The notes: generated by a model from the letters alone, not told the origin. A stretch of 53,654 nt of DNA from Muribaculaceae bacterium (GCA_051890435.1 JBJFEF010000310.1:1-53654), one strand, 5' to 3'. Numbered from the stretch's first letter, positions 20,555 to 37,059 are shown. Numbers and translations: made by a program.

Positions 20555-20580
20555 TCTCAAATCTTCAAATTCACATAGCA

Positions 20581-22359
20581 ATGAAACTTCATAAATTTCT
20601 CATAGCCGCTTGTGCGGCACTGGCTACCTTCTCTTCGTGTAGCGACGCTCTCGACGCCACACCCGACGGTCGCGTGTCGATCGACGACGTTTTTGCCGAC
20701 CCCGACCTCTGCGCAGCCTATTTCAGCAGTTGCTTCAACTACATCCCTCAAAAGTCGGTGTGCTACTTCTGGTTCCAGAATTATCCCTGTGCCCTCACCG
20801 ACGATGGCTGGTCAAACGACGACACCAACGGCCCTATCCTTTGCTACAAGGGTCAGGCAAGTGCAGCCGATTTCCCTCTCGACAAATACTGGACTGCTAC
20901 TTTCGACTGTGAATACTGGCAGCACTACTGGCAGCAGATTCGCATCATCAACACTTTCCTCCAGCGAATCCCAACTGCCGCTGTGGCTCGTGAAGAAAAC
21001 CGCAACATCTGGACCGGTGAGGCTCACTGCCTCCGTGCGTTCTTCTATCTCCAGTTGCTCAAGTGGTATGGCGCTCTGCCTATCGTCACCGAGCCTCTCG
21101 ACAACAGCTACGACTATTCGCAGCTGCGCAAAGCTTCCTATGTGGATGTGCTCAAATTCATCTGCGACGACTGCGATGAGGCTTTGAAGAGCGACATGCC
21201 TTGGCACCTCGACAATATCACTCTCAAGTATCGCATGACCAAGGCTATTGCCCTCGCCATCAAGTCCGAAGCCTCGCTCTTCGCTGCAAGTCCGCTCTAT
21301 TGCGGTGGCGAAGACCTCTGGCAATGGGCTTATGAAATCAACAACGATTGCTACACTCAGCTCGTCAACCACGGCTATGAGCTTTACACCGAGATGCAGA
21401 CCGACTACTACAACTGCGCCTACGGCGAATATTTTGCTACAGCCAACTATTGGGGCAGCAACCCAATCGACAAGGAGACTATCTGGCAGTCCGATTTCGG
21501 TACTCACCCCTTCTGGTGGGTGTCGGGCACTCCTATTCAGGGTAACTACCTCTCGGGCACCGTCCCCTTGCAGGAACTCGTCGATTCCTACGATATGCTC
21601 GCTACCGGAAAGCCCGTTGTCGATCTCGAAAAGCCTTATCTCGATGAATATCACCTCGAGCCTAACTATGTGCCCGGCTCGGGCTACGACCCACAAAATC
21701 CCTATGAGGGACGCGATCCTCGCCTCGCTGCCACTGTGATATTCAATGGCAGCACCGTACAGAAGGGTGCTACCGTGCATAATGTTGAGACTTGGGTAGG
21801 CGGCAACTGCGGCATCAAGGATAAAGGTGAGCGCTTCAGCCACACCGGCTACTATCGCCGCAAATATGCCAACTACCGCAGCGGTAACGACGAAGGCAAG
21901 TGGAAATACTACCGCCTCGGCTGCGTGATGCTTAATCTCGCAGAGTGTGCCGTTGAGGTTGGCAAAACCGATCAGGCTATGCGCCTTGTCAACCAGATTC
22001 GACACCGCGCCGGATTCTCTTCGTCGGTCGATGTCAAGGCTGCAAGCGTCAATGAGGCTCGCCTCCTCGTGCGCCACGAGCGCCGTGTAGAGCTCGCCTA
22101 TGAGGAAAACCGCTACTTCGACGTCCGCCGCTGGACTCCCGAAGATCAGGATATGCTCTGCGAAAAATATGCCACCGGAATGGAAATCACCAAGACCGGC
22201 GTCAAGCTTTCCTACAAGCGCATTCTTGTGGGTACCGATGGCAGCGTCCCAAGCAAATACACCTATCAGGCTAAGTGGCACTTCTTCCCAATTCCCGCAG
22301 CCGAAGTGGCTCGTCTCAATGCCCTCACCGGCGAGAAATGGCAAAACAAGGGCTGGTAA
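20581..22359 (+). CDS. susD: SusD/RagB-family lipoprotein (pair 1)
   Basis: The lipoprotein signal is ...AALATFSSC|SD. SusD hallmarks are LRAFFYLQLLKWYGALPIV, NLAECAVEVG and RVELAYEENRYFDVRRW. It starts 26 nt after susC. Confidence 0.9.
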   Translation: MKLHKFLIAACAALATFSSCSDALDATPDGRVSIDDVFADPDLCAAYFSSCFNYIPQKSVCYFWFQNYPCALTDDGWSNDDTNGPILCYKGQASAADFPLDKYWTATFDCEYWQHYWQQIRIINTFLQRIPTAAVAREENRNIWTGEAHCLRAFFYLQLLKWYGALPIVTEPLDNSYDYSQLRKASYVDVLKFICDDCDEALKSDMPWHLDNITLKYRMTKAIALAIKSEASLFAASPLYCGGEDLWQWAYEINNDCYTQLVNHGYELYTEMQTDYYNCAYGEYFATANYWGSNPIDKETIWQSDFGTHPFWWVSGTPIQGNYLSGTVPLQELVDSYDMLATGKPVVDLEKPYLDEYHLEPNYVPGSGYDPQNPYEGRDPRLAATVIFNGSTVQKGATVHNVETWVGGNCGIKDKGERFSHTGYYRRKYANYRSGNDEGKWKYYRLGCVMLNLAECAVEVGKTDQAMRLVNQIRHRAGFSSSVDVKAASVNEARLLVRHERRVELAYEENRYFDVRRWTPEDQDMLCEKYATGMEITKTGVKLSYKRILVGTDGSVPSKYTYQAKWHFFPIPAAEVARLNALTGEKWQNKGW

Positions 22360-22407
22360 TTCCTCGCGTTATTCTTCAAACTTTTATTTAATGCTAATTC
22401 ATAGAAA

Positions 22408-25230
22408 ATGAAACGCAAACTATCATATATCATAGCTACCGCTTCTCTGCTGGTATCTTCTTCCGCCTTTGCGGCTCCTTCTGATACCGACTCGGTGGCT
22501 GAAATAGCTTTCGGTCAGAAAATCAAGTCGTCGGCTTTTGTCGGCGCCAAATCTACCGTTGCATCCGACATTATCGACGATTCCCGCTCGGTGGGTCTCG
22601 ACAAATCGGTGATGGGACACCTCTCCGGTGCCACAATGATTCAATCCTCATCTCTCCCAGGCGCCGACAACTGCGCATGGTATATTCGCGGCCTCGCTTC
22701 GGTCAACGGTAATGCTGTCCTCTATGTGCTCGACGGTGTCCCGGCTCCTACGCTTTCTCCTAACACTCTCGACCCCTCAACCATCGAGAGCGTCACCGTC
22801 CTCAAAGATGCTGCCGCAAAAGCCATCTATGGACCGCTCGGTGCACAAGGCGTGGTGCTCATCAACACTCGCCAAGGACATGCCGGCAAAACTCGCGTCA
22901 ATGTGAGCCTCAGCTATGGCATCAACGACAAGACCCGCGATTTCGAGCCTGTCAATGCTCTTGGATATGCCACTTTGCGCAATCAGGCTCTTGCCAACGA
23001 CGGCAAAGACCCTATTTTCAGCGCCGAGCAGCTCGATGCTTTCCGCAACGGCCAGGGCATCAACAACAATTGGAAACAAATGTTCCTCAAGAACACCACT
23101 TCCACTCAGCTCTACAATGTGAGTGCCGATGGTGGTACCGACCGCATCAAGTTCTACATCAATGCCGGTTTTGCACACCAAGATGGTATCTACAACTCGG
23201 TTGAAAACGAAAAATACAACCCCAATCCCTACTACAACCGATTCACCGCTCTCACCAATGTGAAAGTGAAAGTGTTCAAGCACCTCGATGCTGCCCTCAA
23301 CACCAATTTGCGCATCTATCGCAGCAATGGCAGCACCGTCGGCACCGGCACCATTCTGCACCGCGTCCTCACCACTCCTGCCACTGTGCCCGGTCCCTTC
23401 ACCGAAGATGGCTTGATTCTCACCGACGAGAATTTTGCCAACCCTGCCTATGGTAGTATCAACAAATCGGGTTACAACAAATCGACCGGTACTGATGTCA
23501 ATGCCAATTTCCGCCTCGACCTCGACATGAGCTTCCTCACTCGCGGTCTTTCGGCTCACGCCATTGTGGGTTATCATTCCTACTACACAGGCGCTATCAT
23601 TGGTTCCACCGACTACACACGCTACATCCTCGATATGGATGGCAACCCGGTGCAGTTTGGCTCTAATGCCGATTCTCCTCTTTCACTCGGCAAAAGCTCC
23701 AACACTGTCTATTTCATGAACGTCCAAGGTTCGGTTAACTACGACCGCACATTCTTCGATCGCCTCAGCGTAAATGCAGTGGCAAATTACCTCGCCGAAG
23801 ACCGCATCTCCACAGGCTTCGATTCCAAGAGTGCGCTGCCCTACCGCCGCATTCAGTTTGGCGGTCAGCTCCACCTCGGTTGGGACAATCGCTACTTCCT
23901 CCAAGGAACAATCACCGATGCAGGCAGCGAGGAGTTCTGCAAGGGCAACCAATATCACGTTTCCACCTCAATAGGTGGCGCATGGGACATCGCTCGCGAG
24001 CACTTCATCGATGCCGACTGGCTCAAGACGCTCAAGCTCCGCGCTTCTTATGGTGCTCTGTGCTACGACAACATCTATGCCATCGGACGCTTGCTCTATA
24101 GCAGCGAAATCCGCCAGCAGAGTGGCGCAGGCCTCATTCAAAGCCTCTACACCGCCGCTCTCATTCAGGAATACCAGCTTGGCAATGCCGCCATCTCGTG
24201 GGAGAAATCCTATCAGCAGAATTATGGCATCGACCTCGCTCTCGGTTGCGGTTTCAACGCAAGTTTCGACTACTGGAAAACCATTCAGAAGGGCGTCATC
24301 GGTCGCGACAACTCCAAGCCGGGCATGACGGGTATCTCAAGCAACAATCTGCCCTACGAGAACATCGGTCGCGTGGTAAGCCACGGCTACGACCTCTCTC
24401 TCGAGTATCGCAAAGCCCTCAATTGTGGTCTCAAAATCGGTGTCACAGGTATTCTCAGTTACAATACCAACCGCGTGGAAGAAATTGGTGAATACGACCT
24501 TGGCATCAGCGATTACGCCTATGCCTATCGCACCACCGGATATCCCATCGGTCAGCAATTCGGCTACATTGTCGATTACAGCAACGGTAATGGCTTCTAC
24601 AACACTCAAGAGCAGCTCGATGCCAATCCACTCTCCTATGAGGGCGTTCGTGCTCCGCGTCTTGGCGACTTAATCTATAAGGACCTCAATGGCGACGGCG
24701 TTATCAACGTGAAAGACCAAGCTCCACTCGAGGGCACCCGCTCTCTCCCCACCTACAGCTTCAGCCTCAACCTCGATGCCGCTTTCAAAGGCTTCGACCT
24801 GAGCATGTTCTGGCAAGGCTCTGCCGGCAAGTCGTCATATTATAGCGGCGTGGGAATCCACGAGGATTATGAGCAGGGTGTCTTCTCTCCGATCCACGAA
24901 AATGCCTGGACTGCCGAGCGTTATGCTGCCGGTGAAGAAATTTCCTATCCGGCTCTTTCCACCGGTGGTGCTCTCAGCCTTGAGCAAAACGACTTCTTGG
25001 TATCGAAAAACGACTATGTGCGCTTGAAGAACCTCGTCGTTGGCTACACTTTGCCACAATCAATCACTATGAAAGCTGGCATTTCAAGCCTCCGCGTCTT
25101 CTTCTCGGGCGAGAATCTGCTCACCATCACCAACTTCAAGTTCAAGAAGTTTATCGACCCTGAGCAGGCTTCGGTCACCTCTTATCCCATCTACAAAACT
25201 TTCAACTTTGGCTTAAACGTAAACTTCTGA
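22408..25230 (+). CDS. susC: SusC-family TonB-dependent transporter (pair 2), lacking the N-terminal carboxypeptidase-regulatory-like domain
   Basis: The signal peptide runs directly into the plug (IESVTVLKDAAAKAIYGPLGAQGVVLINTRQG). The C-terminus is ...SYPIYKTFNFGLNVNF. At 940 aa it is shorter than the ~1085 aa of pair 1. Confidence 0.9.
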   Translation: MKRKLSYIIATASLLVSSSAFAAPSDTDSVAEIAFGQKIKSSAFVGAKSTVASDIIDDSRSVGLDKSVMGHLSGATMIQSSSLPGADNCAWYIRGLASVNGNAVLYVLDGVPAPTLSPNTLDPSTIESVTVLKDAAAKAIYGPLGAQGVVLINTRQGHAGKTRVNVSLSYGINDKTRDFEPVNALGYATLRNQALANDGKDPIFSAEQLDAFRNGQGINNNWKQMFLKNTTSTQLYNVSADGGTDRIKFYINAGFAHQDGIYNSVENEKYNPNPYYNRFTALTNVKVKVFKHLDAALNTNLRIYRSNGSTVGTGTILHRVLTTPATVPGPFTEDGLILTDENFANPAYGSINKSGYNKSTGTDVNANFRLDLDMSFLTRGLSAHAIVGYHSYYTGAIIGSTDYTRYILDMDGNPVQFGSNADSPLSLGKSSNTVYFMNVQGSVNYDRTFFDRLSVNAVANYLAEDRISTGFDSKSALPYRRIQFGGQLHLGWDNRYFLQGTITDAGSEEFCKGNQYHVSTSIGGAWDIAREHFIDADWLKTLKLRASYGALCYDNIYAIGRLLYSSEIRQQSGAGLIQSLYTAALIQEYQLGNAAISWEKSYQQNYGIDLALGCGFNASFDYWKTIQKGVIGRDNSKPGMTGISSNNLPYENIGRVVSHGYDLSLEYRKALNCGLKIGVTGILSYNTNRVEEIGEYDLGISDYAYAYRTTGYPIGQQFGYIVDYSNGNGFYNTQEQLDANPLSYEGVRAPRLGDLIYKDLNGDGVINVKDQAPLEGTRSLPTYSFSLNLDAAFKGFDLSMFWQGSAGKSSYYSGVGIHEDYEQGVFSPIHENAWTAERYAAGEEISYPALSTGGALSLEQNDFLVSKNDYVRLKNLVVGYTLPQSITMKAGISSLRVFFSGENLLTITNFKFKKFIDPEQASVTSYPIYKTFNFGLNVNF

Positions 25231-25241
25231 CATATACTACT

Positions 25242-27008
25242 ATGCTGAATCTCACCAAGACATCCCTTTTTATTGCCTCGTGTGCCACTGCTGTGGCTGC
25301 ACTCATGGCAAGCTGCACAAATATCGATGAAATCGACGATGGTCGCCTCACCGACAAAGCTGTGTTTGGCAACCCGAAAAAGGTTGCCGGATACCTCAAC
25401 TATTGCTACGCCAATCTCACCAACCGCGGTCTCGTTCTCGAAGGCAACACTATGCTCGCCGCCTATTGCGACGAAGCCTACGACGTGTACGACCAGCTTA
25501 ATGGTGCTCCCGAGCAGTGGATGGCTGGCCGCGTCACTTCGTTCAACTGCCCCATCTCCAATCCCGGTGACTGGAGCAATTGCTATGAGGGTATTCGCAA
25601 GTGCAACAAGTTTATCGAAAACATCGACGATGCCGTCACCTACGACGAGGACGAGCGCGAGAGCTTCCGTGCACAAGCCTACGGTCTCCGTGCCTACTAC
25701 TATCTCTGCCTCATCAAGAACTACGGCGGTGTGCCTCTCATCCTCTCCAACATTGGCGTTGATATTCCTGCCGATACCAAGCGTGCCTCTTTTGCCGAGT
25801 GCGCCAGGCAGATTATCAGCGACTGTGAGAAGGTGCTTGAAGTGAGCGACGACAACATTCGCCTCACATGGTTCTCGGGTACTATCGAGGACGACCGATA
25901 CCGCTTCAGCAAGGGTATGGCTTGCGCCATCATGTCGCAGGCTGCCCTCTATGCCGCAAGTCCGCTCAACGCTGCCGATGGCAACTTCTCTTGGAGCGAA
26001 GCTGCACAAGTCACCAAACGTGCTCTCGACCTCTGCCTTGAGCATGGATATGAGCTTTTCACCACCGCTCCCACCAACAATGCAGCGCTTTCGTGCTACG
26101 ACCTCTACTTCACCATGCGCTCCGACGTGCAAGGCGTTATCGACAAGGAAACAATCATGGAGTCTAAAAACCAGCTCTCTGTTTGGTCTGACAATGGCTT
26201 GCCTTCGATTCTCGGTCAGGTGAAAGCCGGTGCTTGTCCCACTCAGGAACTTATCGACTCCTACGAAACTACCGACGGCAAAATGCCTATCCTTGGCTAT
26301 GCCGACGCTCAGCACCTGGAGCCTATTTTCAACCCCGAGGCTACTCGCTATAATGAGCAGGCTCCCTACAACAATCGCGACCCACGCCTTGAGTCCACAA
26401 TTTATCACTACAACTCTTTGTTTGAGCCCGGCAGCAAGGTGAAAATCGACACTCGTCCCACCGGTGCCTACGCGCCTTCTGAATCGAGCATCCGTAACAC
26501 CCGCACAGGTTACTATCTGCGCAAGTTCTTCGGCTACAAGTCCGACCGTAGTGCCAACTACGACGGCTACTTCAAGATTTTCCGCCTCGCCGAGCTTTAT
26601 CTCAACTATGCCGAGGCCCTCAATGAGGCTTCGCAGGGCAACACTCCGCAAGAGGCGCTCGATGCCATCAATGCAGTGCGTGCTCGCGTAGGTATGCCGG
26701 CTATCGAGGCTGGTATCAGCACCGACGATTTCCGCACCCGTGTGCGCAATGAGCGCCGCGTGGAATTTGCTTTCGAAGACCAGCGATTCTACGACGTTCG
26801 CCGCTGGATGATTCTCGACCAAGACAAAGTGGTTACCGGCATCAAAGTGATTCCGGGTAAGCTCGGTCGTGTCACCTACGAGCGCGTTGTCGTGAGCGAT
26901 AATCGCGCTGCCACTTCTGAGAAGTATCTGCGCCTGCCTATCCCCGGCACCGAAATCACAAAGCTGAAGACCCACACAGGTATCGACTTCCAGAATGAAG
27001 GGTGGTAA
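25242..27008 (+). CDS. susD: SusD/RagB-family lipoprotein (pair 2)
   Basis: The lipoprotein signal is ...VAALMASC|TN. SusD hallmarks are LRAYYYLCLIKNYGGVPLI, LYLNYAEALNEA and RVEFAFEDQRFYDVRRW. It starts 11 nt after susC. Confidence 0.9.
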   Translation: MLNLTKTSLFIASCATAVAALMASCTNIDEIDDGRLTDKAVFGNPKKVAGYLNYCYANLTNRGLVLEGNTMLAAYCDEAYDVYDQLNGAPEQWMAGRVTSFNCPISNPGDWSNCYEGIRKCNKFIENIDDAVTYDEDERESFRAQAYGLRAYYYLCLIKNYGGVPLILSNIGVDIPADTKRASFAECARQIISDCEKVLEVSDDNIRLTWFSGTIEDDRYRFSKGMACAIMSQAALYAASPLNAADGNFSWSEAAQVTKRALDLCLEHGYELFTTAPTNNAALSCYDLYFTMRSDVQGVIDKETIMESKNQLSVWSDNGLPSILGQVKAGACPTQELIDSYETTDGKMPILGYADAQHLEPIFNPEATRYNEQAPYNNRDPRLESTIYHYNSLFEPGSKVKIDTRPTGAYAPSESSIRNTRTGYYLRKFFGYKSDRSANYDGYFKIFRLAELYLNYAEALNEASQGNTPQEALDAINAVRARVGMPAIEAGISTDDFRTRVRNERRVEFAFEDQRFYDVRRWMILDQDKVVTGIKVIPGKLGRVTYERVVVSDNRAATSEKYLRLPIPGTEITKLKTHTGIDFQNEGW

Positions 27009-27069
27009 CACTATTTTTTACTTATAATTTTTGCCGTTTTTGAAATAAAAGAGTATTTTTGAGGAGAAT

Positions 27070-29136
27070 ATGGAATTATCTCTTATGAAGCAACTGTTTA
27101 AATCCTCCCTCGTGGTGGTAGCTCTCGCGTCGGGCACATCGGTGATGTGTGCCGACGACGAGGCCCCCGAGTGGGACACTTTCAGCGACACCTGGGTGGC
27201 TGTCGATGAGCTGCAACGCACTGTCCGCACCGCCGGTGACGGGCTCACCGAGCCACGCGACAACCGCACAGTGGGTATGTTCTATTATATCTGCAATGGC
27301 CCGCACGGCACTAACGGTGCACCAATCTACGACATCACCGAAATATTGCAGCAGAATCCCACAAATCCTCAATGGGGTCCCGAAGGTGCTCCTCACTGGT
27401 GGGCTAAGCCATGGCTTGGATATTATGAAAATTCCGACTCCTTTGTTTACGACAAGCACCTGCAAATGCTCACCGATGCAGGCATCGATTTCCTTTTCTT
27501 CGACGTCACCAACGCTTTTACCTACGACAGCGCGGTGCGACTGATCATGGAGGCTATCGATCGCCGCACTGCTGCCGGACTGAAGTCGCCTAAGCTATGC
27601 TACACCATCAATGCCTATCCCGCAACGGTGGTGAAAAAGCTCTGGGACAATTTCTACTCCAAGCCCGAGTACGACAAATATTGGTTCTACTACAAAGGAC
27701 GCCCGCTTATGCTCGTCAATAAGAACGAACTTTCGTCGCTCGACAGCAACATTGTGAATCACTTCACCATGCGCTACTCTTGGGCGTGGATGCAAGGCCG
27801 ATATGCCGACCAGTGGGCGTGGCTCGAATACTATCCTCAGAAAATGGGTTGGACTATGGAGAACGGCCAAAAGAAATATGAGCAAATTTCGGTCTCCACA
27901 GCTCAGCACGCCACCACCAAGGTGGGAAAGAGCTACCACAATGGTGCTCAGCCTCGATTCAATGAGTATGCCGTGTGTGAAGATACGCCTAAGGGCCTCT
28001 ATTTCGCCGAGCAATGGCGACAGGCTCACATGCAGCAACCTCCCATCGTCATGGTCACTCAATTCAATGAGTGCATGGCTACCCGTTTTATCATCAAGAA
28101 CTACTCCGAGCTTAACAACATCTATCCCGGCGGAACTCCCGAAATAGGCGGCACCTATTTCGTCGATGCTTTCAATGCCGAGTTCAACCGCGACATCGAG
28201 CCAAGCACGCATCCGCTCATTCGCGACAACTACTATCTCCAGCTTGTCAATAACGTGCGCCAGTACAAGGGTGTGCGCGATATCCCCGTGCCAAGCGAGG
28301 CTAAGACTATCATCCAATCTAAAGACATGACCCAGTGGGACGATGTGATGCCCGAGTTCCGCGACGATATCGGCGACATCACTCACCGCAACACTCAAGG
28401 ATTCCAAAATATGTACCCCATGGTCAACGAAACAGGGCGTACCGACCTTGTCGTTGCCAAGGTGACTAAAGATGACTCCAACGTCTATTTCTATCTTCGC
28501 ACCGCCAACACTCCCTCCAATTTCCGTTTCTCCAAGTCGTGGCTCATGCTCTTCATCAATGCTGATTGCAACTATTCCACAGGTTGGAATGGCTACGACT
28601 TCGTCACCATGAAGAAGTCTAGCACCGAGTATTACCTTTATCGCAACGTAGGCAACGAATACTCATGGAGTGAGGTGTCGAAAATCAATATCCTCCAGGA
28701 TGGTAAAGAGCTTCACTTCGCCATCAGCAAAGCCGACCTCGGAATGACCTCAGATTGCGACTTCGATTTCAAGTGGGCTGACAACATCCCCGAGAATCCC
28801 GATATCCTCGACTTTATCGACAAGGGCGATGTGGCGCCTAATGGTCGCTTCAATTATCGCTACCGTGGCTCTCTCGTCAATTCAGGCGTCGAAAAGGCAA
28901 TTGCCGACGTTCCTTCGGCCGACATCGTTGCATCGCGTCTGCCTTCGGGTGAGGTGAGCGTGCGATGGAGTGTCAGCAATGTGTCAGCCATCGGGCTCTA
29001 CAATGCCCAAGGCTCGCTCATAGGCATGTATCCCATCGATCACGATGCCAAAAGTGCCATTATCGATGCTCCAAGCGGTTTCTTGATTGTGAAAGTCTTT
29101 GCCGATTCTATATCAAAAAGCATAAAACTTCTTTAA
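27070..29136 (+). CDS. GH99/WbsX/DUF5010-like putative TIM-barrel glycoside hydrolase with T9SS C-terminal sorting domain; activity unknown
   Basis: There is a signal peptide. The N-terminal region reads TVGMFYYICNG...HWWAKPWLGYYENSDSFVYDKHLQMLTDAGIDFLFFDVTN...MVTQFNECMA. The F-N-E motif on a hydrophobic strand is as I recall it in GH99/WbsX-type barrels. A C-terminal beta-sandwich-like region follows (DLVVAKVTKDDSNVYFYLRT...FDFKWADN). The last ~80 aa fit a T9SS type A CTD (...AIGLYNAQGSLIGMYPID...GFLIVKVFADSISKSIKLL). Confidence 0.7.
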   Translation: MELSLMKQLFKSSLVVVALASGTSVMCADDEAPEWDTFSDTWVAVDELQRTVRTAGDGLTEPRDNRTVGMFYYICNGPHGTNGAPIYDITEILQQNPTNPQWGPEGAPHWWAKPWLGYYENSDSFVYDKHLQMLTDAGIDFLFFDVTNAFTYDSAVRLIMEAIDRRTAAGLKSPKLCYTINAYPATVVKKLWDNFYSKPEYDKYWFYYKGRPLMLVNKNELSSLDSNIVNHFTMRYSWAWMQGRYADQWAWLEYYPQKMGWTMENGQKKYEQISVSTAQHATTKVGKSYHNGAQPRFNEYAVCEDTPKGLYFAEQWRQAHMQQPPIVMVTQFNECMATRFIIKNYSELNNIYPGGTPEIGGTYFVDAFNAEFNRDIEPSTHPLIRDNYYLQLVNNVRQYKGVRDIPVPSEAKTIIQSKDMTQWDDVMPEFRDDIGDITHRNTQGFQNMYPMVNETGRTDLVVAKVTKDDSNVYFYLRTANTPSNFRFSKSWLMLFINADCNYSTGWNGYDFVTMKKSSTEYYLYRNVGNEYSWSEVSKINILQDGKELHFAISKADLGMTSDCDFDFKWADNIPENPDILDFIDKGDVAPNGRFNYRYRGSLVNSGVEKAIADVPSADIVASRLPSGEVSVRWSVSNVSAIGLYNAQGSLIGMYPIDHDAKSAIIDAPSGFLIVKVFADSISKSIKLL

Positions 29137-29144
29137 CCGGCACA

Positions 29145-30941
29145 ATGAAATTGCACCTTCGTCACATAGCAGCCATTCTTCTCGCATTATTCTCATGCTT
29201 CAGCGCCAATGTCTTTGCCGCTGAGGCATGGGACACTTATGCCGACACCTGGGTAGCTGTTGATGACCTCGGTCGCATCATCTATGATGCCGATTGCGAT
29301 TCGGCTCAGTCGGTGCGCCCGCACTCCGATGTGGGCATGTTCTATTATCTTTGGCACGGTCATCACATCATCAACCATAATGCCATTTTCGACATCACCG
29401 ACATTCTTAACCGCGACTGCAACAACCCGCAGTGGGGCGATCTCTCCGATATGCACTGGTGGGCACGCCCGTTGCTCGGATACTACAATGCCGGCGACCC
29501 TTATGTGGTGGCAAAGCACCTGCAAATGCTCTCTGATGCCGGCGTCGATTTCCTTTTTTTCGACGTCACCAACGGCCCCATCTATGAAAGCGTTGTGAAC
29601 GCCGTGATGCGCGAAATCGACCGCCGCTCGGCTTTGGGAATGAAGTCGCCCAAGCTCTGCTTTTTGTGTTACTGGGGTGGCGCACGAGAGATTGAGCACA
29701 TCTACAACACTTTCTACAGCGATAATTCCCTCGACCGCTTTTGGTATCACTATCAAGGTCGGCCGCTCATTCTTGCCGACCCTGCCGATACTTTAGAGCT
29801 GAAAAATCCCGCAATCGCTCAGCGCTTCACCTTCCGCCGTTCTTGGGCGTGGCTCAAAGGCAAGAAGCCTCGCGAATGGGCGTGGCTCGAAAACTATCCG
29901 CAAATTCCGGGCTACGACTCCATCCCATCTGTGCCCGAGCAGCTCAGCGTGAGCGTGGCGCAGCACGCAAGCTCCAAAATCGGCAAAAGCTACCATCGTG
30001 GCAAGCAGCCTCCGCTCAATTGCCTCGCTCTCACCGATTCCACATCGTGGGGTCTCTATTTCGAGGAGCAATGGAGCACAGCACATCGCTTGCATCCTCC
30101 GGTGCTCATGATCACACAATTCAATGAATGGACTGCACAGCACTTGGTCATCAACGACTCTGCCGACATAAAATATGCCCGTCCGCTCGGTGAGCCTCGG
30201 TTGGGCGAAACTATGTTTGTCGATACCTATAATGCCGAGTTTAACCGCGACATCGAGCCAAGCACGCATCCGCTCATTCGCGACAACTACTATATGCAAT
30301 TTGTTTCTCACATGCACCGCTATAAGGGCTGTCGCGCCATCCCTTGCGCCTCTCCAATAGCGTTCAAGCCCGGCGACGGATTCGACCGGTGGCAAGCGGT
30401 GAGCTATGAATATCGCGACGACCGAGCCGACACTCTCCACCACCACACCCTCGGCTACAATCGCCTCGACACCATCAACAATGTATCGGGGCGTAACGAC
30501 CTGGTGGTGGCTAAAGTTGCTCACGACAGTCGCTACTTCCATTTCTATCTGCAATGCAGCCACCCTTGGCATTTCAAATCGGGCGAAAATGGGGTTACGC
30601 TTCTCATCGCTTCGGGCAACAATGCCTCTAATTGGCATGGCTACACTCATCGCGTATATATATCTTCCGACGGTAAAGCCTCGCTTAGCCGCATCAGTGG
30701 CAACGGCTTCTCTTGGAAGCGCATAGCATCGCTCAATTGCTCTATTTCGGGCAATGAATTACAAGTGTCGGTGCCTCGAAAACATCTCAAGGGCGCTAAT
30801 GGTCACTTCGATTTCAAGTGGATCGACAACCTTCCCGAAACGTGCCCTACACTCGACATCCTCGATTTCTACACCACAGGCGATGCCGCTCCTAATGCTC
30901 GATTTAACTACCGATATAAATTCCACGATAATGAAAAATAA
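29145..30941 (+). CDS. Paralog of the preceding GH99/WbsX/DUF5010-like protein, without T9SS domain
   Basis: The ATG at 29145 gives the signal peptide MKLHLRHIAAILLALFSCFSANVFA (the track ORF 28965 is an upstream extension overlapping the previous gene). It is collinear with the upstream paralog (HWWARPLLGYYNAGDPYVVAKHLQMLSDAGVDFLFFDVTN, MITQFNEWTA, NAEFNRDIEPSTHPLIRDNYY). It ends ...RFNYRYKFHDNEK with no CTD. Confidence 0.7.
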   Translation: MKLHLRHIAAILLALFSCFSANVFAAEAWDTYADTWVAVDDLGRIIYDADCDSAQSVRPHSDVGMFYYLWHGHHIINHNAIFDITDILNRDCNNPQWGDLSDMHWWARPLLGYYNAGDPYVVAKHLQMLSDAGVDFLFFDVTNGPIYESVVNAVMREIDRRSALGMKSPKLCFLCYWGGAREIEHIYNTFYSDNSLDRFWYHYQGRPLILADPADTLELKNPAIAQRFTFRRSWAWLKGKKPREWAWLENYPQIPGYDSIPSVPEQLSVSVAQHASSKIGKSYHRGKQPPLNCLALTDSTSWGLYFEEQWSTAHRLHPPVLMITQFNEWTAQHLVINDSADIKYARPLGEPRLGETMFVDTYNAEFNRDIEPSTHPLIRDNYYMQFVSHMHRYKGCRAIPCASPIAFKPGDGFDRWQAVSYEYRDDRADTLHHHTLGYNRLDTINNVSGRNDLVVAKVAHDSRYFHFYLQCSHPWHFKSGENGVTLLIASGNNASNWHGYTHRVYISSDGKASLSRISGNGFSWKRIASLNCSISGNELQVSVPRKHLKGANGHFDFKWIDNLPETCPTLDILDFYTTGDAAPNARFNYRYKFHDNEK

Positions 30942-33900
30942 ATTTAGTTCTGCAATAATCTGCCTCGTTATGGCTGTGTTGCCCCTTAGCGCTTGGGGCG
31001 ATTTACGAAGCTCTTTTGCTGCTCCTCGCGACAGCGTGCGCACTTCATGCTACTGGTATTGGCTCTCGGGCCACATCAGCGAGCAAGGTGTGGTTGCCGA
31101 CTTGAAAGCCATGAAAGAGGCTGGAATCAACACTGCGTTCATAGGGAATATTGGACTTGGTCCCGAAGATGGGATTGAAAAACCCGGAAAGGTGAAAATC
31201 CTCTCGAAGGAGTGGCTCCGCATTGTGCGAACCGCCCTCTCCACTGCCACTAAGCTTGGCATCGACATTGGTATTTTCAACGCCCCCGGGTGGAGTCAGG
31301 CGGGCGGACCGTGGAATAAGCCCGAAAACTCCATGCGCTACCTTGCCAATCAATCGGTGGAGGTCGATGGCGGCACTGTCAGTGTCTCTTTCGACACTCC
31401 CGGCAATGGTGGCTATTACACCGATGTGAAAGTGCTTGCTTATCGTTTGCCCGGCAATTATGTCTCACTCGGCAACGAAAATGCTCTTGTTTCTCCCGGC
31501 TTTGAACCTCTCTTCGACGGCAATCCCGATTCCGAAGTGGCAATTCCCGACTCTTGCGTAATCTCGCTCAAGCCGCGCATTGCCGCTTTCACCGCACGCT
31601 CGATTACTATCCGCACTGCCACTCACAGCATCAGTGGTATTGCCGAAATTTGGGCGAAAAACGGCTCCGACCGTCGCAAGGTGACTGAATTCAAAATCGA
31701 CCGAACTCTCGATTGGCTCTTTGTGGGCTACGACCCCTATGCTCCTATCGTGCACGCTATCCCCGACACTCCCGCCGATGAAATCTGCATCGTGCTTCGC
31801 TCTATGAGCAAGGGGGGCGCACTCAAGGAAATCACCGTTTCTTCCGAGCCTGTTATCGACCAATATCCCGAGAAGATTCTCGCCAAGATGCTACAAATTC
31901 CCACTCCCACTTGGCACGACTACAAGTGGGCGCAATCAGTCGCTCACAACAGCACGCCTGCCGTGAATGTCGCTGAAGTTCTCGACCTTTCGGCTCATCT
32001 CTCCGGCAATTCGCTTTCTTGCTCTCTGCCTGAGGGTAAGTGGCGCATAGTGCGCACTTTCATGCTTCCCACTTTGGTGGAAAATTCGCCCACGCTTGCC
32101 GACGGTCGCGGTCTCGAGGTTGACCGCTGGGACTATGCAAGTCTCCGCAATCACTACGATAGCTTCATGGGGCGCATCATCAAGTATGTTCCGGCTGCCG
32201 AGCGCAAGTGCCTCAAGTATATGGTGTGCGACAGCTACGAGAAAGCTGCTCAAAATTTCGGTAATGATTTCATCGAGCAGTTTAAGCATCGTTTTGGCTA
32301 CGACCCTGTTCCTTTCCTCCTCACTTATGGTGGCGTTGTGGTTGGCAGCGAGGAAATGACCAACCGATTCCTGTGGGACGTGCGCCGCATGATTGCCGAC
32401 CGCCTGGCTTACGACCACATCGGCGAGCTTCGCAAAATGGCTAATGCCGATGGAATGCGCCTGTGGCTCGAAAACTATGGCCACTGGGGGTTCTGCGGCG
32501 AGTTTTTGCAATATGGTGGACAAGCCGACGACGTGGCTGGTGAATTTTGGAGTGAAGGCGAACTGGGCAACATAGAAAACCGCGCTGCTTCGTCGTGCGG
32601 TCACATCTATGGCAAGCGCTTCATTTTCTCCGAGTCGTTCACCTGTGCCGGAGCTCCTTTCTCTCGCTATCCCGCCACAATGAAGCAGCGTGGCGACCGT
32701 TTCTTCAGTGAGGGCATCAACAGCACCCTGCTTCACCTCGTGGTCTCGCAACCCGACGAAAAAACCTTGCCCGGACTTAACGCTTGGTTCAGCAACGAAT
32801 TTAACCGCAAAAACACCTGGTATAGCCACTTCCATCTGTTCACCGACTATCTCAAGCGCTGCAACTTGCTGCAACAGCAAGGAAGCTACGTTGCCGATGT
32901 TGCCTACTTCATTGGTGAAGATGCTCCTGTAATGACCGGTGCCACCATTCCTGATATGCCTCGTGGCTATCAGTTTGACTATATCAACGCCGAAGTGATA
33001 ATGAATCGCCTTTCGGCTACTTCCGACCATCGCCTGTGTCTGCCGGGCACGCTCAATGCCTACCGACTTCTCGTGCTGCCTCCTCTTGGCACCATCACTC
33101 CCGAGCTCCTCTCCCGCATCAGTTCGCTTGTTGCCGACGGTGCTATTGTGCTCGGACCGAAACCCGCTAAATCGCCGAGCTTGAAGGGATATCCTGCTTG
33201 CGATGCCGAGGTACGCCGCCTTGCCGATGAGCTTTGGGGCACATCGGCTGATGGCCGCATATTGCGCCAAGTGGGCAAGGGCTTCATTCTCAGCGGATAT
33301 GAGGTGAATGAAGTGCTCGATATGTTTGGAATCGCTCCCGATGCCTCGTTCAAGGCCGTTCAAGGCAAATGTGATGTGGCTTATGCTCACAACACCACTG
33401 CCGACAAGCGCGAAATCTACTTTATTGCCAATCAGTCGCCCACCGACACCATTTCCATCGATGCTTCGCTCCGCGCCTCCGGCTTCAATGCCGAGTTGTG
33501 GAATCCGGTGACGGGCAAAATCCATTCTGCCCGATTCTCCGATACCGGCAGCCGCACTGTGGTTCCATTGCGTCTCTGTCCGCTCGAAAGCACATTTGTG
33601 GTTCTCTCTCACGACCGCTCTGCTTCGCCCGACAAATCATCTCAACCTCTCTGCATCGCTTCGCTTGCCGATGGATGGAGTGTCACTTTCACTGATAAAT
33701 TCGGAAAGCGCACTAAACGCGACAATTTCACCATTTGCGACCTCAAGGATGTCACCGAGGGCGACCTCTGCCATTTCTCAGGCGAAGCCGTCTATTCACG
33801 CACCTTCTCGTGCAACGCTCCTGACGGTGCTAAAGTCATTCTCGACCTTGGCAAGGTGAGTGTGATGGCTAAAGTGAAGGTTAACGGCAAGTATGTGGGT

Positions 33901-34128
33901 GGCGTGTGGACTGCTCCCTATGCCATCGACATCACCGATGCCGTAGTCGCGGGCAACAACTCTGTGGAGATTTCAGTTGTCAATACGTGGGTCAACCGTC
34001 TCATTGGCGATGCTGCTTTGCCTCAGAGCAAGCGCCTTACCAAGTGCAATGTCAACGACTGGCGTAGCGACTCTCCGCTACAATCTTCGGGGCTCGTGGG
34101 GCCCGTGCACATTCTCGTTCAGAACTGA
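30931..34128 (+). CDS. GH106-like alpha-L-rhamnosidase (about 1065 aa)
   Basis: The ATG at 30931 gives the signal peptide MKNKFSSAIICLVMAVLPLSAWG and overlaps the upstream stop by 11 nt. The N-terminal SCYWYWLSGHISEQGVVADLKAMKEAGINTAFIGNIG and C-terminal VNGKYVGGVWTAPYAIDITDAV..NNSVEISVVNTWVNRLIGD match what I recall of Pfam Glyco_hydro_106. This needs an HMM check. Confidence 0.65.
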   Translation: MKNKFSSAIICLVMAVLPLSAWGDLRSSFAAPRDSVRTSCYWYWLSGHISEQGVVADLKAMKEAGINTAFIGNIGLGPEDGIEKPGKVKILSKEWLRIVRTALSTATKLGIDIGIFNAPGWSQAGGPWNKPENSMRYLANQSVEVDGGTVSVSFDTPGNGGYYTDVKVLAYRLPGNYVSLGNENALVSPGFEPLFDGNPDSEVAIPDSCVISLKPRIAAFTARSITIRTATHSISGIAEIWAKNGSDRRKVTEFKIDRTLDWLFVGYDPYAPIVHAIPDTPADEICIVLRSMSKGGALKEITVSSEPVIDQYPEKILAKMLQIPTPTWHDYKWAQSVAHNSTPAVNVAEVLDLSAHLSGNSLSCSLPEGKWRIVRTFMLPTLVENSPTLADGRGLEVDRWDYASLRNHYDSFMGRIIKYVPAAERKCLKYMVCDSYEKAAQNFGNDFIEQFKHRFGYDPVPFLLTYGGVVVGSEEMTNRFLWDVRRMIADRLAYDHIGELRKMANADGMRLWLENYGHWGFCGEFLQYGGQADDVAGEFWSEGELGNIENRAASSCGHIYGKRFIFSESFTCAGAPFSRYPATMKQRGDRFFSEGINSTLLHLVVSQPDEKTLPGLNAWFSNEFNRKNTWYSHFHLFTDYLKRCNLLQQQGSYVADVAYFIGEDAPVMTGATIPDMPRGYQFDYINAEVIMNRLSATSDHRLCLPGTLNAYRLLVLPPLGTITPELLSRISSLVADGAIVLGPKPAKSPSLKGYPACDAEVRRLADELWGTSADGRILRQVGKGFILSGYEVNEVLDMFGIAPDASFKAVQGKCDVAYAHNTTADKREIYFIANQSPTDTISIDASLRASGFNAELWNPVTGKIHSARFSDTGSRTVVPLRLCPLESTFVVLSHDRSASPDKSSQPLCIASLADGWSVTFTDKFGKRTKRDNFTICDLKDVTEGDLCHFSGEAVYSRTFSCNAPDGAKVILDLGKVSVMAKVKVNGKYVGGVWTAPYAIDITDAVVAGNNSVEISVVNTWVNRLIGDAALPQSKRLTKCNVNDWRSDSPLQSSGLVGPVHILVQN

Positions 34129-34184
34129 CAAGTGCAAATTCTCGTTCAGAACTGACAATGCACATTCTCGTTCAGAAATAACAA
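34105..34184. repeat. Tandem direct repeat, 27 bp x 3, spanning the GH106 stop codon and the GH106-rhaB spacer
   Basis: Unit 1 is GTGCACATTCTCGTTCAGAACTGACAA (34105-34131). Unit 2 is GTGCAAATTCTCGTTCAGAACTGACAA (34132-34158). Unit 3 is TGCACATTCTCGTTCAGAAATAACAA (34159-34184). Unit 1 encodes the C-terminus VHILVQN*, and unit 2 in the same frame reads VQILVQN*. Confidence 0.9.
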
Positions 34185-34211
34185 TTATAAACCAAATACC
34201 TACCGAATATT

Positions 34212-35693
34212 ATGAATTATTTTGCTGTTGACCTTGGCGCTACGAGCGGTCGCACAATGCTGTGCCGCATCGAGGGTGGCAAAATCTCCATTGAAGAGGT
34301 TAGCCGCTTTGCCAATCCCATAATCGAGGTGCGCAACCACTGCTACTGGGATATCTTGCACCTCTACCGCGAGATTCTGGGCGGTCTTGCCATTGTGGCT
34401 CGTCGGGGCATCGATATTGCGTCGATAGGCATCGACACCTGGGGCGTCGATTTTGTGTGCTTCGGCAGCGACGGGGGCATTCTCAGTGCCCCTCTGAGCT
34501 ACCGCGACCCGCATACAGCCGGTGTACCTGCCGAGTTCTTCAAGGAAATCCCCGCAAGCCGCGTCTATGGCAAGACGGGAATCCAGGTGATGGACTTCAA
34601 CTCGCTTTTCCAGCTCTATGCCATGCACAAGGCTGGTAACTCGGCTCTCGCTGCTGCCCACAAGATTCTGTTCATGCCCGATGCACTCAGCTACTTGCTC
34701 ACTGGTGTGATGGTGACCGAATACAGCATCGCTTCCACTTCGCAGCTTCTCAACCCGGTCACGAAGGAGCTTGACGAGGAGCTTCTGCGTGCCGTGGGCG
34801 TGCGCCCCGAGCAGTTTGCTCCCATTGTGATGCCCGGCACACGCATCGGTGTGCTCACAAAAGAGGTGCAACGCCTCACCGGTCTCGGAGCGGTGCCGGT
34901 AATCGCTGTGGCAGGTCACGACACTGCCTCGGCTATCGCTGCAGTGCCTGCCGGCAATGAGCGATTCGCCTATCTTAGTTCGGGCACTTGGAGCCTCATG
35001 GGTATCGAGACTGCCGACCCCATCATCAATGAGCGCAGTTGCCGCGAGAATTTCACCAACGAGGGCGGCGTTGACGGCACCACTCGATTCCTCAAGAACA
35101 TCTGCGGAATGTGGCTGCTTGAGCGTTGCCGCGCTGAGTGGAAAGCCGCAGGAATCGACACCGGTCACGACACTATCGCTGCCGAGGTTGCAAAAGCTGA
35201 GCCTTTCGTCTCAATCATCAATCCCGATGCCAAGTGCTTTGCCAACCCCGACTCAATGCTCACCGCCATCGCCGACTACTGCCGCGCCACTGCGCAACCC
35301 GTTCCCGAAGGCGTGGGTGCTGTGGCTCGATGCATCTTCGAGAGCCTTGCCCTGCGCTACCGCCAGGTGATGGAAATCCTCGACGGCTTCGCCCCGATGC
35401 CTATCGAGTGCCTGCACATCATAGGCGGAGGCTCGCAAAACAAGATTCTTAACCAATTCACCTGCGACTCTATCGGGCGCCGCGTGCTTGCAGGTCCCGC
35501 TGAGTGCACAGCCCTCGGCAATGCCGCTATGCAGGCGCGTACTGCCGGCGAGGCTGCTTCGCTCGCCGATATGCGTGCATTGGTTGCCGCCTCGGTGGAA
35601 CTTGTGGAATACTCGCCCACCTCGCAGCGTGAAGCCTGGGAAATAGCCTACTGCCGTTTCCTTGAAATTACTGCAAATTACAACAAAAACTAA
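34212..35693 (+). CDS. rhaB: Rhamnulokinase (FGGY kinase)
   Basis: The N-terminus MNYFAVDLGATSGRTMLCRIEGGKISIEEVSRFAN parallels E. coli RhaB (CVAVDLGASSGRVMLARYE...). The length is 493 aa, and it sits next to rhaA, rhaT and rhaD. Confidence 0.9.
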   Translation: MNYFAVDLGATSGRTMLCRIEGGKISIEEVSRFANPIIEVRNHCYWDILHLYREILGGLAIVARRGIDIASIGIDTWGVDFVCFGSDGGILSAPLSYRDPHTAGVPAEFFKEIPASRVYGKTGIQVMDFNSLFQLYAMHKAGNSALAAAHKILFMPDALSYLLTGVMVTEYSIASTSQLLNPVTKELDEELLRAVGVRPEQFAPIVMPGTRIGVLTKEVQRLTGLGAVPVIAVAGHDTASAIAAVPAGNERFAYLSSGTWSLMGIETADPIINERSCRENFTNEGGVDGTTRFLKNICGMWLLERCRAEWKAAGIDTGHDTIAAEVAKAEPFVSIINPDAKCFANPDSMLTAIADYCRATAQPVPEGVGAVARCIFESLALRYRQVMEILDGFAPMPIECLHIIGGGSQNKILNQFTCDSIGRRVLAGPAECTALGNAAMQARTAGEAASLADMRALVAASVELVEYSPTSQREAWEIAYCRFLEITANYNKN

Positions 35694-35705
35694 AAATCCA
35701 TTAAT

Positions 35706-36959
35706 ATGAAATCTGAAAGCATTGAACGCGCGTACGCCTACGCAAAAGAACGTTTTGCAGCAGTCGGTGTCGATACCGATGCTGCCATCGCAAAAATGAA
35801 TGACATCCACTTGTCGCTCCACTGCTGGCAAGCCGACGATGTGGCTGGCTTTGAGAACTCAAGCAGCCTCTCGGGAGGTATCCAAGCCACAGGCAATTAT
35901 CCCGGCAAGGCCCGCAACATCGACGAGCTCCGTGCCGATATCGCCAAGGTGAAATCACTCCTCCCGGGTACTCACCGCCTCAACCTCCACGAAATCTACG
36001 GCGACTTCGGCAGCGAAAAGGTTGATCGCGACCAGGTGGAGCCGCGCCACTTCGAGAGCTGGATACAGTGGGCGCAGGAAAACGGTATGAAGCTCGACTT
36101 CAACAGCACTTCCTTCTCTCACCCCAAGAGCGGCTCGCTCTCGCTCTCAAATCCCGACAAGGGAATACGCGACTTCTGGATTGAGCATACTAAGCGTTGC
36201 CGTGCCGTGGCTGAGGAGATGGGCAAGCGCCAGGGCGACCCCTGTATCATGAACCTCTGGATTCACGACGGAAGCAAGGACATCACCGTCAACCGTATGC
36301 TCTACCGTAGCCTGCTCAAAGACTCGCTCGATGAGATTTTCACGCAGAAATACGACAACATGAAGGACTGCCTCGAATCGAAGGTGTTCGGTATCGGTCT
36401 GGAAAGCTACACTGTTGGTTCATGCGACTTCTACACTGCCTACGCTGCACAACACAATAAGATTGTTACTCTCGACACAGGTCACTTCCATCCCACTGAG
36501 AGCGTTGCCGACAAGGTTTCGTCTTTGCTCCTCTTCGTGCCCGAACTGATGCTCCACGTGAGCCGCCCCGTGCGCTGGGACAGCGACCATGTGACCATCA
36601 TGAACGACGACACTATCGACCTCTGCCGCGAGATTGTGCGCTGCAACGCCATCGACCGCGTGCACATCGGTCTCGACTACTTCGATGCCAGCATCAACCG
36701 CATCGGTGCCTACATCATCGGTGCCCGCGCCACTCAAAAGTGCGTGCTTCTTGCCTTGCTTGAGCCGATTGATGCTCTCCGCAAGTTTGAGGCTGCCGAC
36801 AAGGGCTTCGAGCGCCTTGCAATGCTCGAAGAGCTGAAGTCGATGCCGTGGGGTGCAGTGTGGGATATGTATTGCCTGCGCAGCGGTGTGCCCGTAGGAG
36901 AAGACTACATCGCCGACATAGAGCGCTATGAGGCTGAAATCACTTCAAAACGCAAATAG
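35706..36959 (+). CDS. rhaA: L-rhamnose isomerase
   Basis: IERAYAYAKERFAAVGVDTDAAIAKMNDIHLSLHCWQADDVAGFEN parallels E. coli RhaA ([23 protein letters not shown]...VSMHCWQGDDVSGFEN). The length is 417 aa. Confidence 0.95.
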   Translation: MKSESIERAYAYAKERFAAVGVDTDAAIAKMNDIHLSLHCWQADDVAGFENSSSLSGGIQATGNYPGKARNIDELRADIAKVKSLLPGTHRLNLHEIYGDFGSEKVDRDQVEPRHFESWIQWAQENGMKLDFNSTSFSHPKSGSLSLSNPDKGIRDFWIEHTKRCRAVAEEMGKRQGDPCIMNLWIHDGSKDITVNRMLYRSLLKDSLDEIFTQKYDNMKDCLESKVFGIGLESYTVGSCDFYTAYAAQHNKIVTLDTGHFHPTESVADKVSSLLLFVPELMLHVSRPVRWDSDHVTIMNDDTIDLCREIVRCNAIDRVHIGLDYFDASINRIGAYIIGARATQKCVLLALLEPIDALRKFEAADKGFERLAMLEELKSMPWGAVWDMYCLRSGVPVGEDYIADIERYEAEITSKRK

Positions 36960-36974
36960 TATGAATCTCGTGTG

Positions 36975-37032: not shown

Positions 37033-37059
37033 TCATGAATAACATCTCTTAATTTTTTT

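Follow-up and report, generated by a model that had tools for sequence, protein, structure and literature searches.

A pair of secreted proteins in a Muribaculaceae rhamnose locus represents a widespread GH99/GH71-related family, a candidate new glycoside hydrolase family

A 53,654-nucleotide stretch of DNA from a Muribaculaceae bacterium (GCA_051890435.1, JBJFEF010000310.1:1-53654), referred to in its full length as the window, carries a polysaccharide utilization locus (PUL) in which two tandem paralogous genes stand directly between a SusD gene and a GH106 α-L-rhamnosidase gene. Several lines of evidence support the view that the products of this pair, paralog 1 and paralog 2, are anciently diverged members of a large uncharacterized family of secreted carbohydrate-active enzymes related to the glycoside hydrolase families GH99 and GH71. 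By sequence comparison, the family stands apart among proteins of the GH99/GH71 fold through an altered catalytic arrangement, which makes it a good candidate for recognition as a glycoside hydrolase family of its own. We infer that both paralogs are glycoside hydrolases. The explanation that best accounts for the whole, and towards which we lean by a little, is that the two would act in the stepwise breakdown, outside the cell and then in the periplasm, of a glycan containing rhamnose and glucose.

A tandem pair with a GH99-like barrel

Paralog 1 (27070-29136, plus strand; 688 residues) comprises a signal peptide, a predicted GH99/GH71-like (β/α)8 barrel, a CBM9-like β-sandwich and a predicted type IX secretion system (T9SS) sorting domain, and every residue that is invariant in the family is present in it. 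Paralog 2 (29145-30941, plus strand; 598 residues from the ATG at 29145, with its stop codon at 30939-30941) has a Sec signal peptide and the same barrel and β-sandwich, is without the sorting domain and is predicted to be periplasmic. A mechanical list of open reading frames (ORFs) starts paralog 2 at 28965; the added upstream part would run into paralog 1, and it is at 29145 that the hydrophobic signal peptide starts, so that this ATG is taken as the start. Paralog 1 has two in-frame ATGs, at 27070 and 27085, and the N-termini of its homologues (MK...) resemble that encoded from the second (MKQLFKSS...), which may be the real start.

The two genes are separated by 8 nucleotides (29137-29144), and the GH106 gene, which begins with an ATG at 30931 and encodes its own signal peptide (MKNKFSSAIICLVMAVLPLSAWG), overlaps the paralog 2 stop by 11 nucleotides. 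The proteins are 45% identical across 597 residues (BLASTP, E 7e-176). Both carry an N-terminal signal peptide, and paralog 1 continues at its C-terminus for about 85-90 residues that have no counterpart in paralog 2. An earlier reading of the window by a model working without database searches (the sequence-only reading) had described collinear paralogs between the second SusD and GH106 with this spacing, sharing five sequence blocks; coordinates and alignment agree with it, and all five blocks were located in both proteins at equivalent positions, with NECMAT and NEWTAQ as described.

Neither paralog reaches the threshold of any curated family in Pfam or NCBIfam. With the Pfam GH99 model (PF16317, gathering threshold 33 bits), the match of paralog 2 is confined to residues 280-330 and scores 20.6 bits (E 2.7e-4), and paralog 1 gives no match at E≤1. 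No Pfam match at E≤1 was found for either protein with DUF5010, WbsX (PF14307) or GH71 (PF03659), and single-sequence phmmer searches of PDB sequences with the paralogs returned nothing. A profile built from a family alignment of 55 sequences (A1), on the other hand, reaches the GH99 structures (BxGH99) among PDB sequences in two stretches, with E 5.5e-6. Structure prediction points the same way. The AlphaFold2 model of paralog 2 built on A1 (pLDDT 88.7, pTM 0.90) finds GH99 endo-α-mannosidases as all of its top 26 Foldseek matches in the PDB (E 1e-7 to 7e-6, best 1.2e-7; probability 1.0), at target-normalized TM-scores of 0.48-0.56 and identities of 14-16%. GH71 α-1,3-glucanases rank next (E ~1e-5), with TM-scores below those of GH99, and among the PDB entries available up to April 2026 no solved structure closer than GH99 was found. 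The modelled layout, a (β/α)8 barrel followed by a C-terminal β-sandwich that matches CBM9 (E 1e-3), is GH71-like, and the barrel itself is nearest to GH99.

Profile and predicted fold together show the modelled barrel to be distantly homologous to GH99 and GH71. The proteins nevertheless fail the defining tests of GH99, GH71, WbsX and DUF5010, agreeing in fold only, and therefore they belong to none of these families and should not be filed under them. The sequence-only reading had called the pair GH99/WbsX/DUF5010-like and had proposed Pfam and Foldseek comparisons: the first element of that label survives, as a distant relation that remains below the Pfam threshold and is seen there for paralog 2 only, and the other two do not. 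Its β-sandwich-like module in both proteins is borne out by the CBM9-like domain of the paralog 2 model.

A conserved putative active site without the canonical acid

GH99 and GH71 share a D/E-x-x-E dyad carried on one strand, which reads DYGE in GH71 (PMC12394665), and in GH99 the motif EW[H/G]E is kept across all domains of life (PMC11025385). In the hidden Markov model (HMM) alignment, the family consensus 'tqfnEWia' falls on 'tsFNEWHE' of GH99, which places E328 of paralog 2 and E334 of paralog 1 on BxGH99 E333, the first catalytic Glu, and A331 and A337, respectively, on E336, the GH99 acid. The strand reads TQFNECMAT in paralog 1 (28057-28083, plus strand; residues 330-338) and TQFNEWTAQ in paralog 2 (30114-30140, plus strand; residues 324-332). 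Conservation was counted over 102 non-identical family members from several phyla, in paralog 2 numbering. T324, N327 and E328 are present in 100% of them, and position 331 is Ala in 100 of the 102. Alignment thus shows that the predicted first catalytic Glu is kept and the second is swapped for Ala family-wide, which extends to the whole family what the sequence-only reading had seen in two proteins, namely F-N-E without the second Glu. The F-N-E-W-x-E-G strand of WbsX is likewise not reproduced, its second Glu being absent here.

Further polar positions are conserved to a similar degree: D135, D140, D360, R368, D369 and D380 at 100%, E265, E308 and E365 at 99%, and E371 at 98%. The most conserved motif of the family is the NAEFNRDIEPSTHPLIRDNYY loop (28174-28236 in paralog 1; 30231-30293, residues 363-383, in paralog 2; both plus strand) with its invariant E, R, D, E and D, in paralog 2 E365, R368, D369, E371 and D380. 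Across the family, the stretch from D360 to D380 has the signature YNAEFNRDIEPSxxPLIRDNYY. The secondary structure of the model places it after the N-E-W strand and before the final helix, which makes it the β8-α8 loop; in GH71 this loop forms a wall of the substrate cleft (PMC12394665). Since the GH99/GH71 acid position is Ala, a replacement carboxylate is sought in this loop, where the cluster D360/E365/D369/E371 would be its most likely source. The GH99 stretch 'FHLEPY' lies opposite the family consensus 'afmvhs', which has no Glu, in an alignment that is approximate at such identity; the H-[I/L]-E-P-Y substrate-binding motif of GH99 is not conserved in the aligned stretch. The β-sandwich has invariant residues of its own (W416, D452, W497, F557, W559, D561 and R586), which suggests that it is integrated with the barrel and is not a detachable binding module.

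Inactive GH-like binding proteins are known from PULs, and an Ala at the second dyad position in all but two of the members counted would suit non-catalytic pseudo-enzymes that have kept the GH fold, lost the acid and now bind glycans at the surface and in the periplasm. In GH71, mutation of the second Glu reduces activity by a factor of about 1,600 to 15,000 (PMC12394665). About ten acidic residues, along with N327-E328 and R368, are however held at 98-100% across phyla in an active-site-like manner; the CBM6/CBM35 and repeat modules fused to some members would be redundant on a pure binder; and the periplasm would be an odd site for a soluble glycan binder such as paralog 2, with its signal peptide only. 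We regard loss of catalysis as very unlikely.

In comparison with characterized enzymes, the family shares most with GH99 (BxGH99, BtGH99 and human MANEA), its best match in both profile and fold: the (β/α)8 barrel is common to both, as are the motifs PxLGxY and KH(l/m)xM and the F-N-E-W strand, on which the first catalytic Glu is aligned and invariant, and GH99 members, like the pair here, occur in Bacteroidota PULs. The differences are the Ala at E336, an HLEPY motif that is not conserved where aligned, identities of no more than 14-16% with a sub-threshold Pfam score, the added CBM9-like β-sandwich, a β8-α8 loop that is both long and conserved, and a gene context of rhamnose and glucose rather than mannan. 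It would be next to negligible, in our estimate, that these are ordinary, divergent GH99 endo-α-1,2-mannosidases or mannanases. The weak PF16317 match of paralog 2, echoed by about a quarter of the homologues among the matches listed, and the rank of GH99 as best structural match speak for such an assignment, but the score stays under the gathering threshold, paralog 1 has no match at all, TM-scores are about 0.5, the motif EW[H/G]E (PMC11025385) reads E-W/C-x-A throughout, and the neighbourhood is without any mannan-related gene.

With the GH71 α-1,3-glucanases (AnGH71C, Agn1p), the second-best fold match, the family shares the two-domain layout of a (β/α)8 barrel with a tightly associated C-terminal β-sandwich, and the first acid of the dyad sits on the same strand. 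The likeness of the sandwiches is seen at the level of layout, that of the family being matched to CBM9, and the family has N-E-W/C-x-A in place of DYGE, no Pfam GH71 match and TM-scores lower than with GH99. GH71 enzymes are moreover inverting, with an Asp base and a Glu acid, and it is this acid that is missing here. PmGH99 of Prevotella melaninogenica, with the CDD 'GH99_GH71_like' groups, offers another parallel, as a member of the GH71/99 superfamily that likewise comes from a Bacteroidota PUL and has no substrate assigned to it; it differs as a single-domain barrel of another lineage that keeps the DYGE dyad and lies with GH87 and GH97 in an α-glucan locus (PMC13421300).

Export signals and an old duplication

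The C-terminal extension of paralog 1 (28882-29133, plus strand; residues about 605-688) had been read as a T9SS type A sorting domain. Taken alone, it scores 12.4 bits against the T9SS sorting model TIGR04183 (cut-off 23; E 0.11). Among homologous tails of the family, however, 7 of 22 match PF18962 (best E 4e-7), and a profile of the tail alignment matches the sorting domain of gingipain RgpB through its last residue (E 5e-8). The paralog 1 tail also aligns (E 8e-5) with the sorting domain of an 885-residue protein encoded nearby, which itself passes TIGR04183 with 35.7 bits. The presence of two sorting-domain proteins in the window lends indirect support to T9SS machinery (PorV, SprA, PorU and others) in this genome. 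Comparison at the family level thus shows the predicted T9SS type A sorting domain that the sequence-only reading had proposed.

Its companion claim, that paralog 2 has a signal peptide only, holds as well: a Sec signal peptide is present, probably cleaved between VFA and AE, and there is no sorting domain. Across the family, the proteins begin with a signal peptide of SPI type whose end lies immediately before the conserved WDTYSDTWVAVD. That paralog 2 is a lipoprotein anchored through the Cys of LFSC is unlikely, as this Cys is absent in orthologues and the family N-termini are of SPI type; because the Cys is not conserved, paralog 2 is probably a soluble periplasmic protein.

Two size forms exist in the family, one of about 590 residues and one of about 680 residues with a tail of ~90. 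In a neighbour-joining tree, paralog 2 falls in a monophyletic clade entirely without the sorting domain and paralog 1 in a clade having one, and because of this separation the pair is, on the evidence of the tree, an old duplication and not a recent one. In at least five lineages, a single short copy stands after one or more long copies that have a sorting domain. This order was seen in Ca. Limisoma and related Bacteroidales (loci L001-L003), in Prevotella (L005, L079), in other Bacteroidaceae/Prevotellaceae (L025, L031) and in two metagenome contigs with five to seven long copies and one short (L083, L085). The stretches from these two contigs (L083, 2-15882, JGI metagenome 3300053571; L085, 1-11770, JGI metagenome 3300053041) are head-to-tail arrays of six to eight paralogs, whose copies measure ~683 residues with the sorting domain and whose last copy has 589 residues without it. 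The L085 array adjoins a complete rhaB/A/T/D set and an Fe-ADH gene; the stretch fetched for L083 includes Fe-ADH and an aldolase only. A partial member from a Muribaculaceae metagenome-assembled genome (MAG; P0106) has a precomputed dockerin match (PF00404) in place of the T9SS sorting domain.

A large family across several phyla

A word-indexed search yielded 587 family clusters at 90% identity, individually holding up to about 1300 member sequences; all of those that carry a source name are called 'hypothetical protein'. An exhaustive HMM search over 1.84 billion representatives of 50%-identity clusters found 1258 representatives at E≤1e-30; at E≤1e-3 the number was 3696, and many of these proteins have several domains. 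Among the matches listed, about a quarter of the homologues have a precomputed PF16317 GH99 match, which is weak. Fusion partners in the members sampled include CBM6/CBM35, GH43, BACON and chitobiase-C modules and T9SS sorting domains. With one genome taken per species, relatives are encoded in 451 stretches, from hosts that include Muribaculaceae, gut and oral Prevotella, Coprobacter, Paludibacter, Pedobacter, Planctomycetota and Verrucomicrobiota. The relative nearest to the window is Ca. Limisoma, at 75%.

Full-text literature searches for a characterized member, GH99-like families, endo-rhamnosidases and PULs with GH106, GH78 and GH3 returned no description of the family; CAZy and CDD lie outside this search, so that a very recent classification is possible. 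On the same themes the literature yielded only the phage tailspike endorhamnosidases and the unrelated GH71/99-like PmGH99.

A phage or viral origin of the family was considered and rejected: tblastn found no match in 50,697 phage genomes, and a search by conserved peptide patterns found no relative in IMG/VR. In a fold search of BFVD, two unnamed viral proteins, M1HHB3 and M1HNY2, lie nearer to the paralog 2 barrel than any solved structure, with E 4.8e-15 at 24% identity over 361 columns and with E 8.5e-7; their accession series resembles that of chlorovirus proteomes.

Rhamnose genes recur beside the family

Neighbouring genes were annotated by Pfam, NCBIfam and PDB sequence searches. Directly 5' of the paralogs and tightly spaced stand SusC, SusD, SusC and SusD genes (17264-20554, 20581-22359, 22408-25230 and 25242-27008, plus strand), preceded by a hybrid two-component sensor/regulator (HTCS; 13175-17182, plus strand). 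The GH106 α-L-rhamnosidase (30931-34128, plus strand; Pfam E 4.6e-178) is followed by RhaB, RhaA, RhaT and RhaD for L-rhamnose catabolism and uptake (34212-38890, plus strand) and by a full-length GH78 α-L-rhamnosidase (38985-41795, minus strand). On the other side lie two GH3 enzymes nearest to β-glucosidases (3543-5828 and 5836-8334, minus strand), which are recurrent partners of the family, and a GH78-type α-L-rhamnosidase of 592 residues (11178-12956, minus strand) that consists of the catalytic (α/α)6 domain only, with BT1001 as its best PDB match (3cih; E 6e-38). Two SusC/SusD pairs, an HTCS, GH106, two GH78 and two GH3 enzymes and rhaBATD together identify a PUL, and the conclusion that it is devoted to a glycan with L-rhamnose and β-glucose is well supported. 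The rhamnose PUL context of the sequence-only reading is in this way confirmed.

Gene spacing is tight from the first SusC through GH106, and from this spacing alone the two SusC/D pairs, the paralogs and GH106 probably form one operon. A promoter and terminator scan of 16900-35000, whose models leave Bacteroidota promoters outside their range, gave counts near chance; no terminator-like site was found in the intergenic gaps of this region, and one promoter-like match, by the same non-Bacteroidota models, lies in the gap between the second SusD and paralog 1 (27040-27069); the outcome is compatible with an operon.

To compare neighbourhoods, all ORFs were clustered in 84 loci including the window, many of them only a few kilobases long, so that the neighbour counts are lower bounds. 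Double SusC/SusD and GH106 each occur in at least 14 of the 84 loci, GH3 and the domain-only GH78 rhamnosidase each in at least 11, full-length GH78 in at least 5 and RhaB/RhaA in at least 4; enrichment of these neighbours is a judgement from typical copy numbers and not a statistic computed against the genomic background. The order SusC-D-C-D and then a family member recurs in other genera. Rhamnosidases or rha genes are present in 7 of the 9 distinct Pfam-annotated contexts, the window included, and locus L086 holds the gene set of the window in another order (HTCS, GH78-like, a family member with sorting domain, partner protein, GH3, RhaB/A/T/D and GH106). This association with rhamnose extends to Verrucomicrobiota, Omnitrophota, Abditibacteriota and Prolixibacteraceae. 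In size, in spread and in the consistency of its link to rhamnose, the family goes beyond what the sequence-only reading could see.

The domain-only 592-residue GH78 protein is among the most specific recurrent partners of the family, and the trio of family member, GH106 and domain-only GH78 protein was seen in oral Prevotella, in Pedobacter and in an abundant gut contig. A second unannotated T9SS-sorted family, here called x563 (515-620 residues, with a CBM6-like 'IEAEDY' stretch), lies directly 3' of the paralog family in many loci (L018, 12132-13823; L017, 12252-13928 and 14529-16190; L009, 12234-13778; L086, 12077-13738) and is fused to its C-terminus in proteins of 1586-2023 residues (L026, L030); the window is without x563.

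Some neighbours point away from rhamnose as the sugar at the cleavage site. If the pair belonged to a new enzyme family that cut a β-glucosidic or other backbone bond, or a sugar-phosphate, rhamnose would be a side chain or co-component of the glycan. In Coprobacter secundus, a metallophosphoesterase, an alkaline phosphatase and an EEP+DUF1565 gene, the last an EEP-family phosphatase, follow a family member (L018, 14518-20835), and a phosphodiester glycosidase of NAGPA type does so in a Bacteroidales MAG (L047, 12012-16436). A GDPD-like gene (67-1860) opens the window. Because phosphoesterase genes adjoin family members in this way and because of the GDPD-like gene, there are hints that some target glycans carry phosphodiester links. 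Other members lie beside GH20, GH43, GH65 or amino-sugar genes, and the bonds cleaved by the known relatives GH99 and GH71 are D-mannosidic and D-glucosidic. Few partners, however, recur as often or spread as widely as rhamnosidases and rha genes, which reach as far as Verrucomicrobiota, Omnitrophota and Abditibacteriota, and the operon in the window is without any other candidate for a backbone-cleaving enzyme. A non-rhamnosidic target is on balance unlikely, though we give it real weight.

Action from the chain end is another possibility, the pair then being exo-acting glycosidases of a new family, such as a further α-L-rhamnosidase or a disaccharide-releasing enzyme. Exo-rhamnosidases are already redundant in the locus (GH78 twice, GH106), which suggests many distinct rhamnose linkages, but both GH99 and GH71, the closest in fold, are endo-acting and have open clefts, and T9SS export, CBM fusions and a place directly after SusC/D would be typical of the endo-enzyme that initiates degradation in a PUL. 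Accordingly we attach little credence to exo action.

The 885-residue T9SS-sorted protein

Between the GH3 genes and the domain-only GH78 gene lies the gene for the 885-residue protein (8461-11118, minus strand), which consists of six tandem β-modules of about 125 residues and the sorting domain. Five of the modules are 33-41% identical among themselves, and the sixth is 21% identical. The modules correspond to the N-terminal 680 residues of 1345-residue Muribaculaceae proteins in which they are fused to a catalytic domain of the paralog family (L013-L016, L019, L049). An AlphaFold2 model of one module (pLDDT 92) found no match in the PDB by Foldseek (best E 3.2). The module is possibly a new carbohydrate-binding module, and the 885-residue protein is probably a glycan-binding partner. 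Single-linkage clustering had drawn it in as a third family member; this was rejected, as only the sorting domain is held in common with paralog 1 and the link arises via the fusions in other genomes.

A second PUL-like locus

The 3' part of the window (42096-53654) holds a second, separate PUL-like locus, whose SusC gene is truncated where the window stops. Its hybrid two-component regulator has a sensor domain of the periplasmic sugar-binding-protein type. The GH28 genes of the locus encode one GH28 enzyme and a 588-residue protein with weak GH28/rhamnogalacturonidase likeness, and two further proteins, of 486 and 540 residues, are without a family match. Rhamnogalacturonan-I as substrate of the paralogs, a candidate prompted by this GH28 locus, is not favoured: GH28, GH105 and polysaccharide lyase (PL) genes almost never adjoin the family in other genomes.

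Discussion

In the reading we favour, the two paralogs would divide the labour. Paralog 1, probably exported by the T9SS, would act first, on the cell surface or beyond it, and open up a glycan rich in L-rhamnose and β-glucose by cuts that are probably internal; the SusC/D transporters would take in the products, which paralog 2 would trim further in the periplasm, after which the exo-acting GH106, GH78 and GH3 enzymes would free rhamnose and glucose, and the products of the adjacent rhaBATD genes would consume the rhamnose. Catalysis would rely on the conserved Glu of the N-E-W strand and on a different second carboxylate, likely one of D360, E365, D369 and E371. The gene contexts and the fusions in other genomes give this view of endo-acting hydrolases for a rhamnose glycan a firmer footing, as we infer, than the sequence-only reading could know.

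Several observations weigh against this stepwise scheme. The canonical dyad acid of GH99 and GH71 is missing, and hydrolysis is not to be assumed by homology; the replacement carboxylate is proposed from conservation and from its position in the β8-α8 loop. Some family members (L082, L084) lie in contexts unrelated to rhamnose, and with phosphatases and phosphodiesterases adjoining some others the cleaved bond need not be rhamnosidic. The literature searched contains no assayed member of the family.

The substrate is more likely to be a polymer than a plant glycoside, in view of the binding partners with their many modules, the CBM fusions and the presence of two SusC/D pairs. What kind of polymer is the weakest step of the argument: because of the large paralog arrays, the oral Prevotella hosts and the occasional phosphodiesterase neighbours, our loosely held guess is a bacterial rhamnose-glucose polysaccharide, either of the cell wall or an exopolysaccharide.

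A bolder form of this guess, which we consider distinctly unlikely, would make the family endo-α-L-rhamnanases. By a rewired GH99-type mechanism they would degrade rhamnose-glucose polysaccharides, of the cell wall or exopolysaccharides, that belong to Gram-positive bacteria living alongside them in the gut, the mouth and the rumen. α-L-Rhamnosides have the same trans-diaxial arrangement of O1 and O2 as α-mannosides, and for this reason the Glu of the N-E-W strand could still promote participation of the 2-OH, with the acid moved to the invariant β8-α8 loop. The activity would be that of phage tailspike endorhamnosidases of the P22 and Sf6 type, the only endo-acting cleavers of α-L-rhamnosidic bonds in the literature searched, although these have an unrelated β-helix fold and no phage homologue of the family was found. 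If the idea were true, the arrays of up to eight sorting-domain paralogs would represent a toolkit for serotype-variable rhamnans.

The family occupies the place of a signature enzyme in a recurrent type of PUL and is widespread yet without an assigned function. Because about a quarter of the listed homologues carry weak GH99 Pfam matches, metagenomic surveys of carbohydrate-active enzymes may miscount its members as endo-mannosidases. The family also amounts to a natural experiment on the GH99/GH71 active site without its canonical acid. Its characterization would probably give a new CAZy family and would reveal which glycan is the target of a class of rhamnose PULs that is common in Muribaculaceae and Prevotella.

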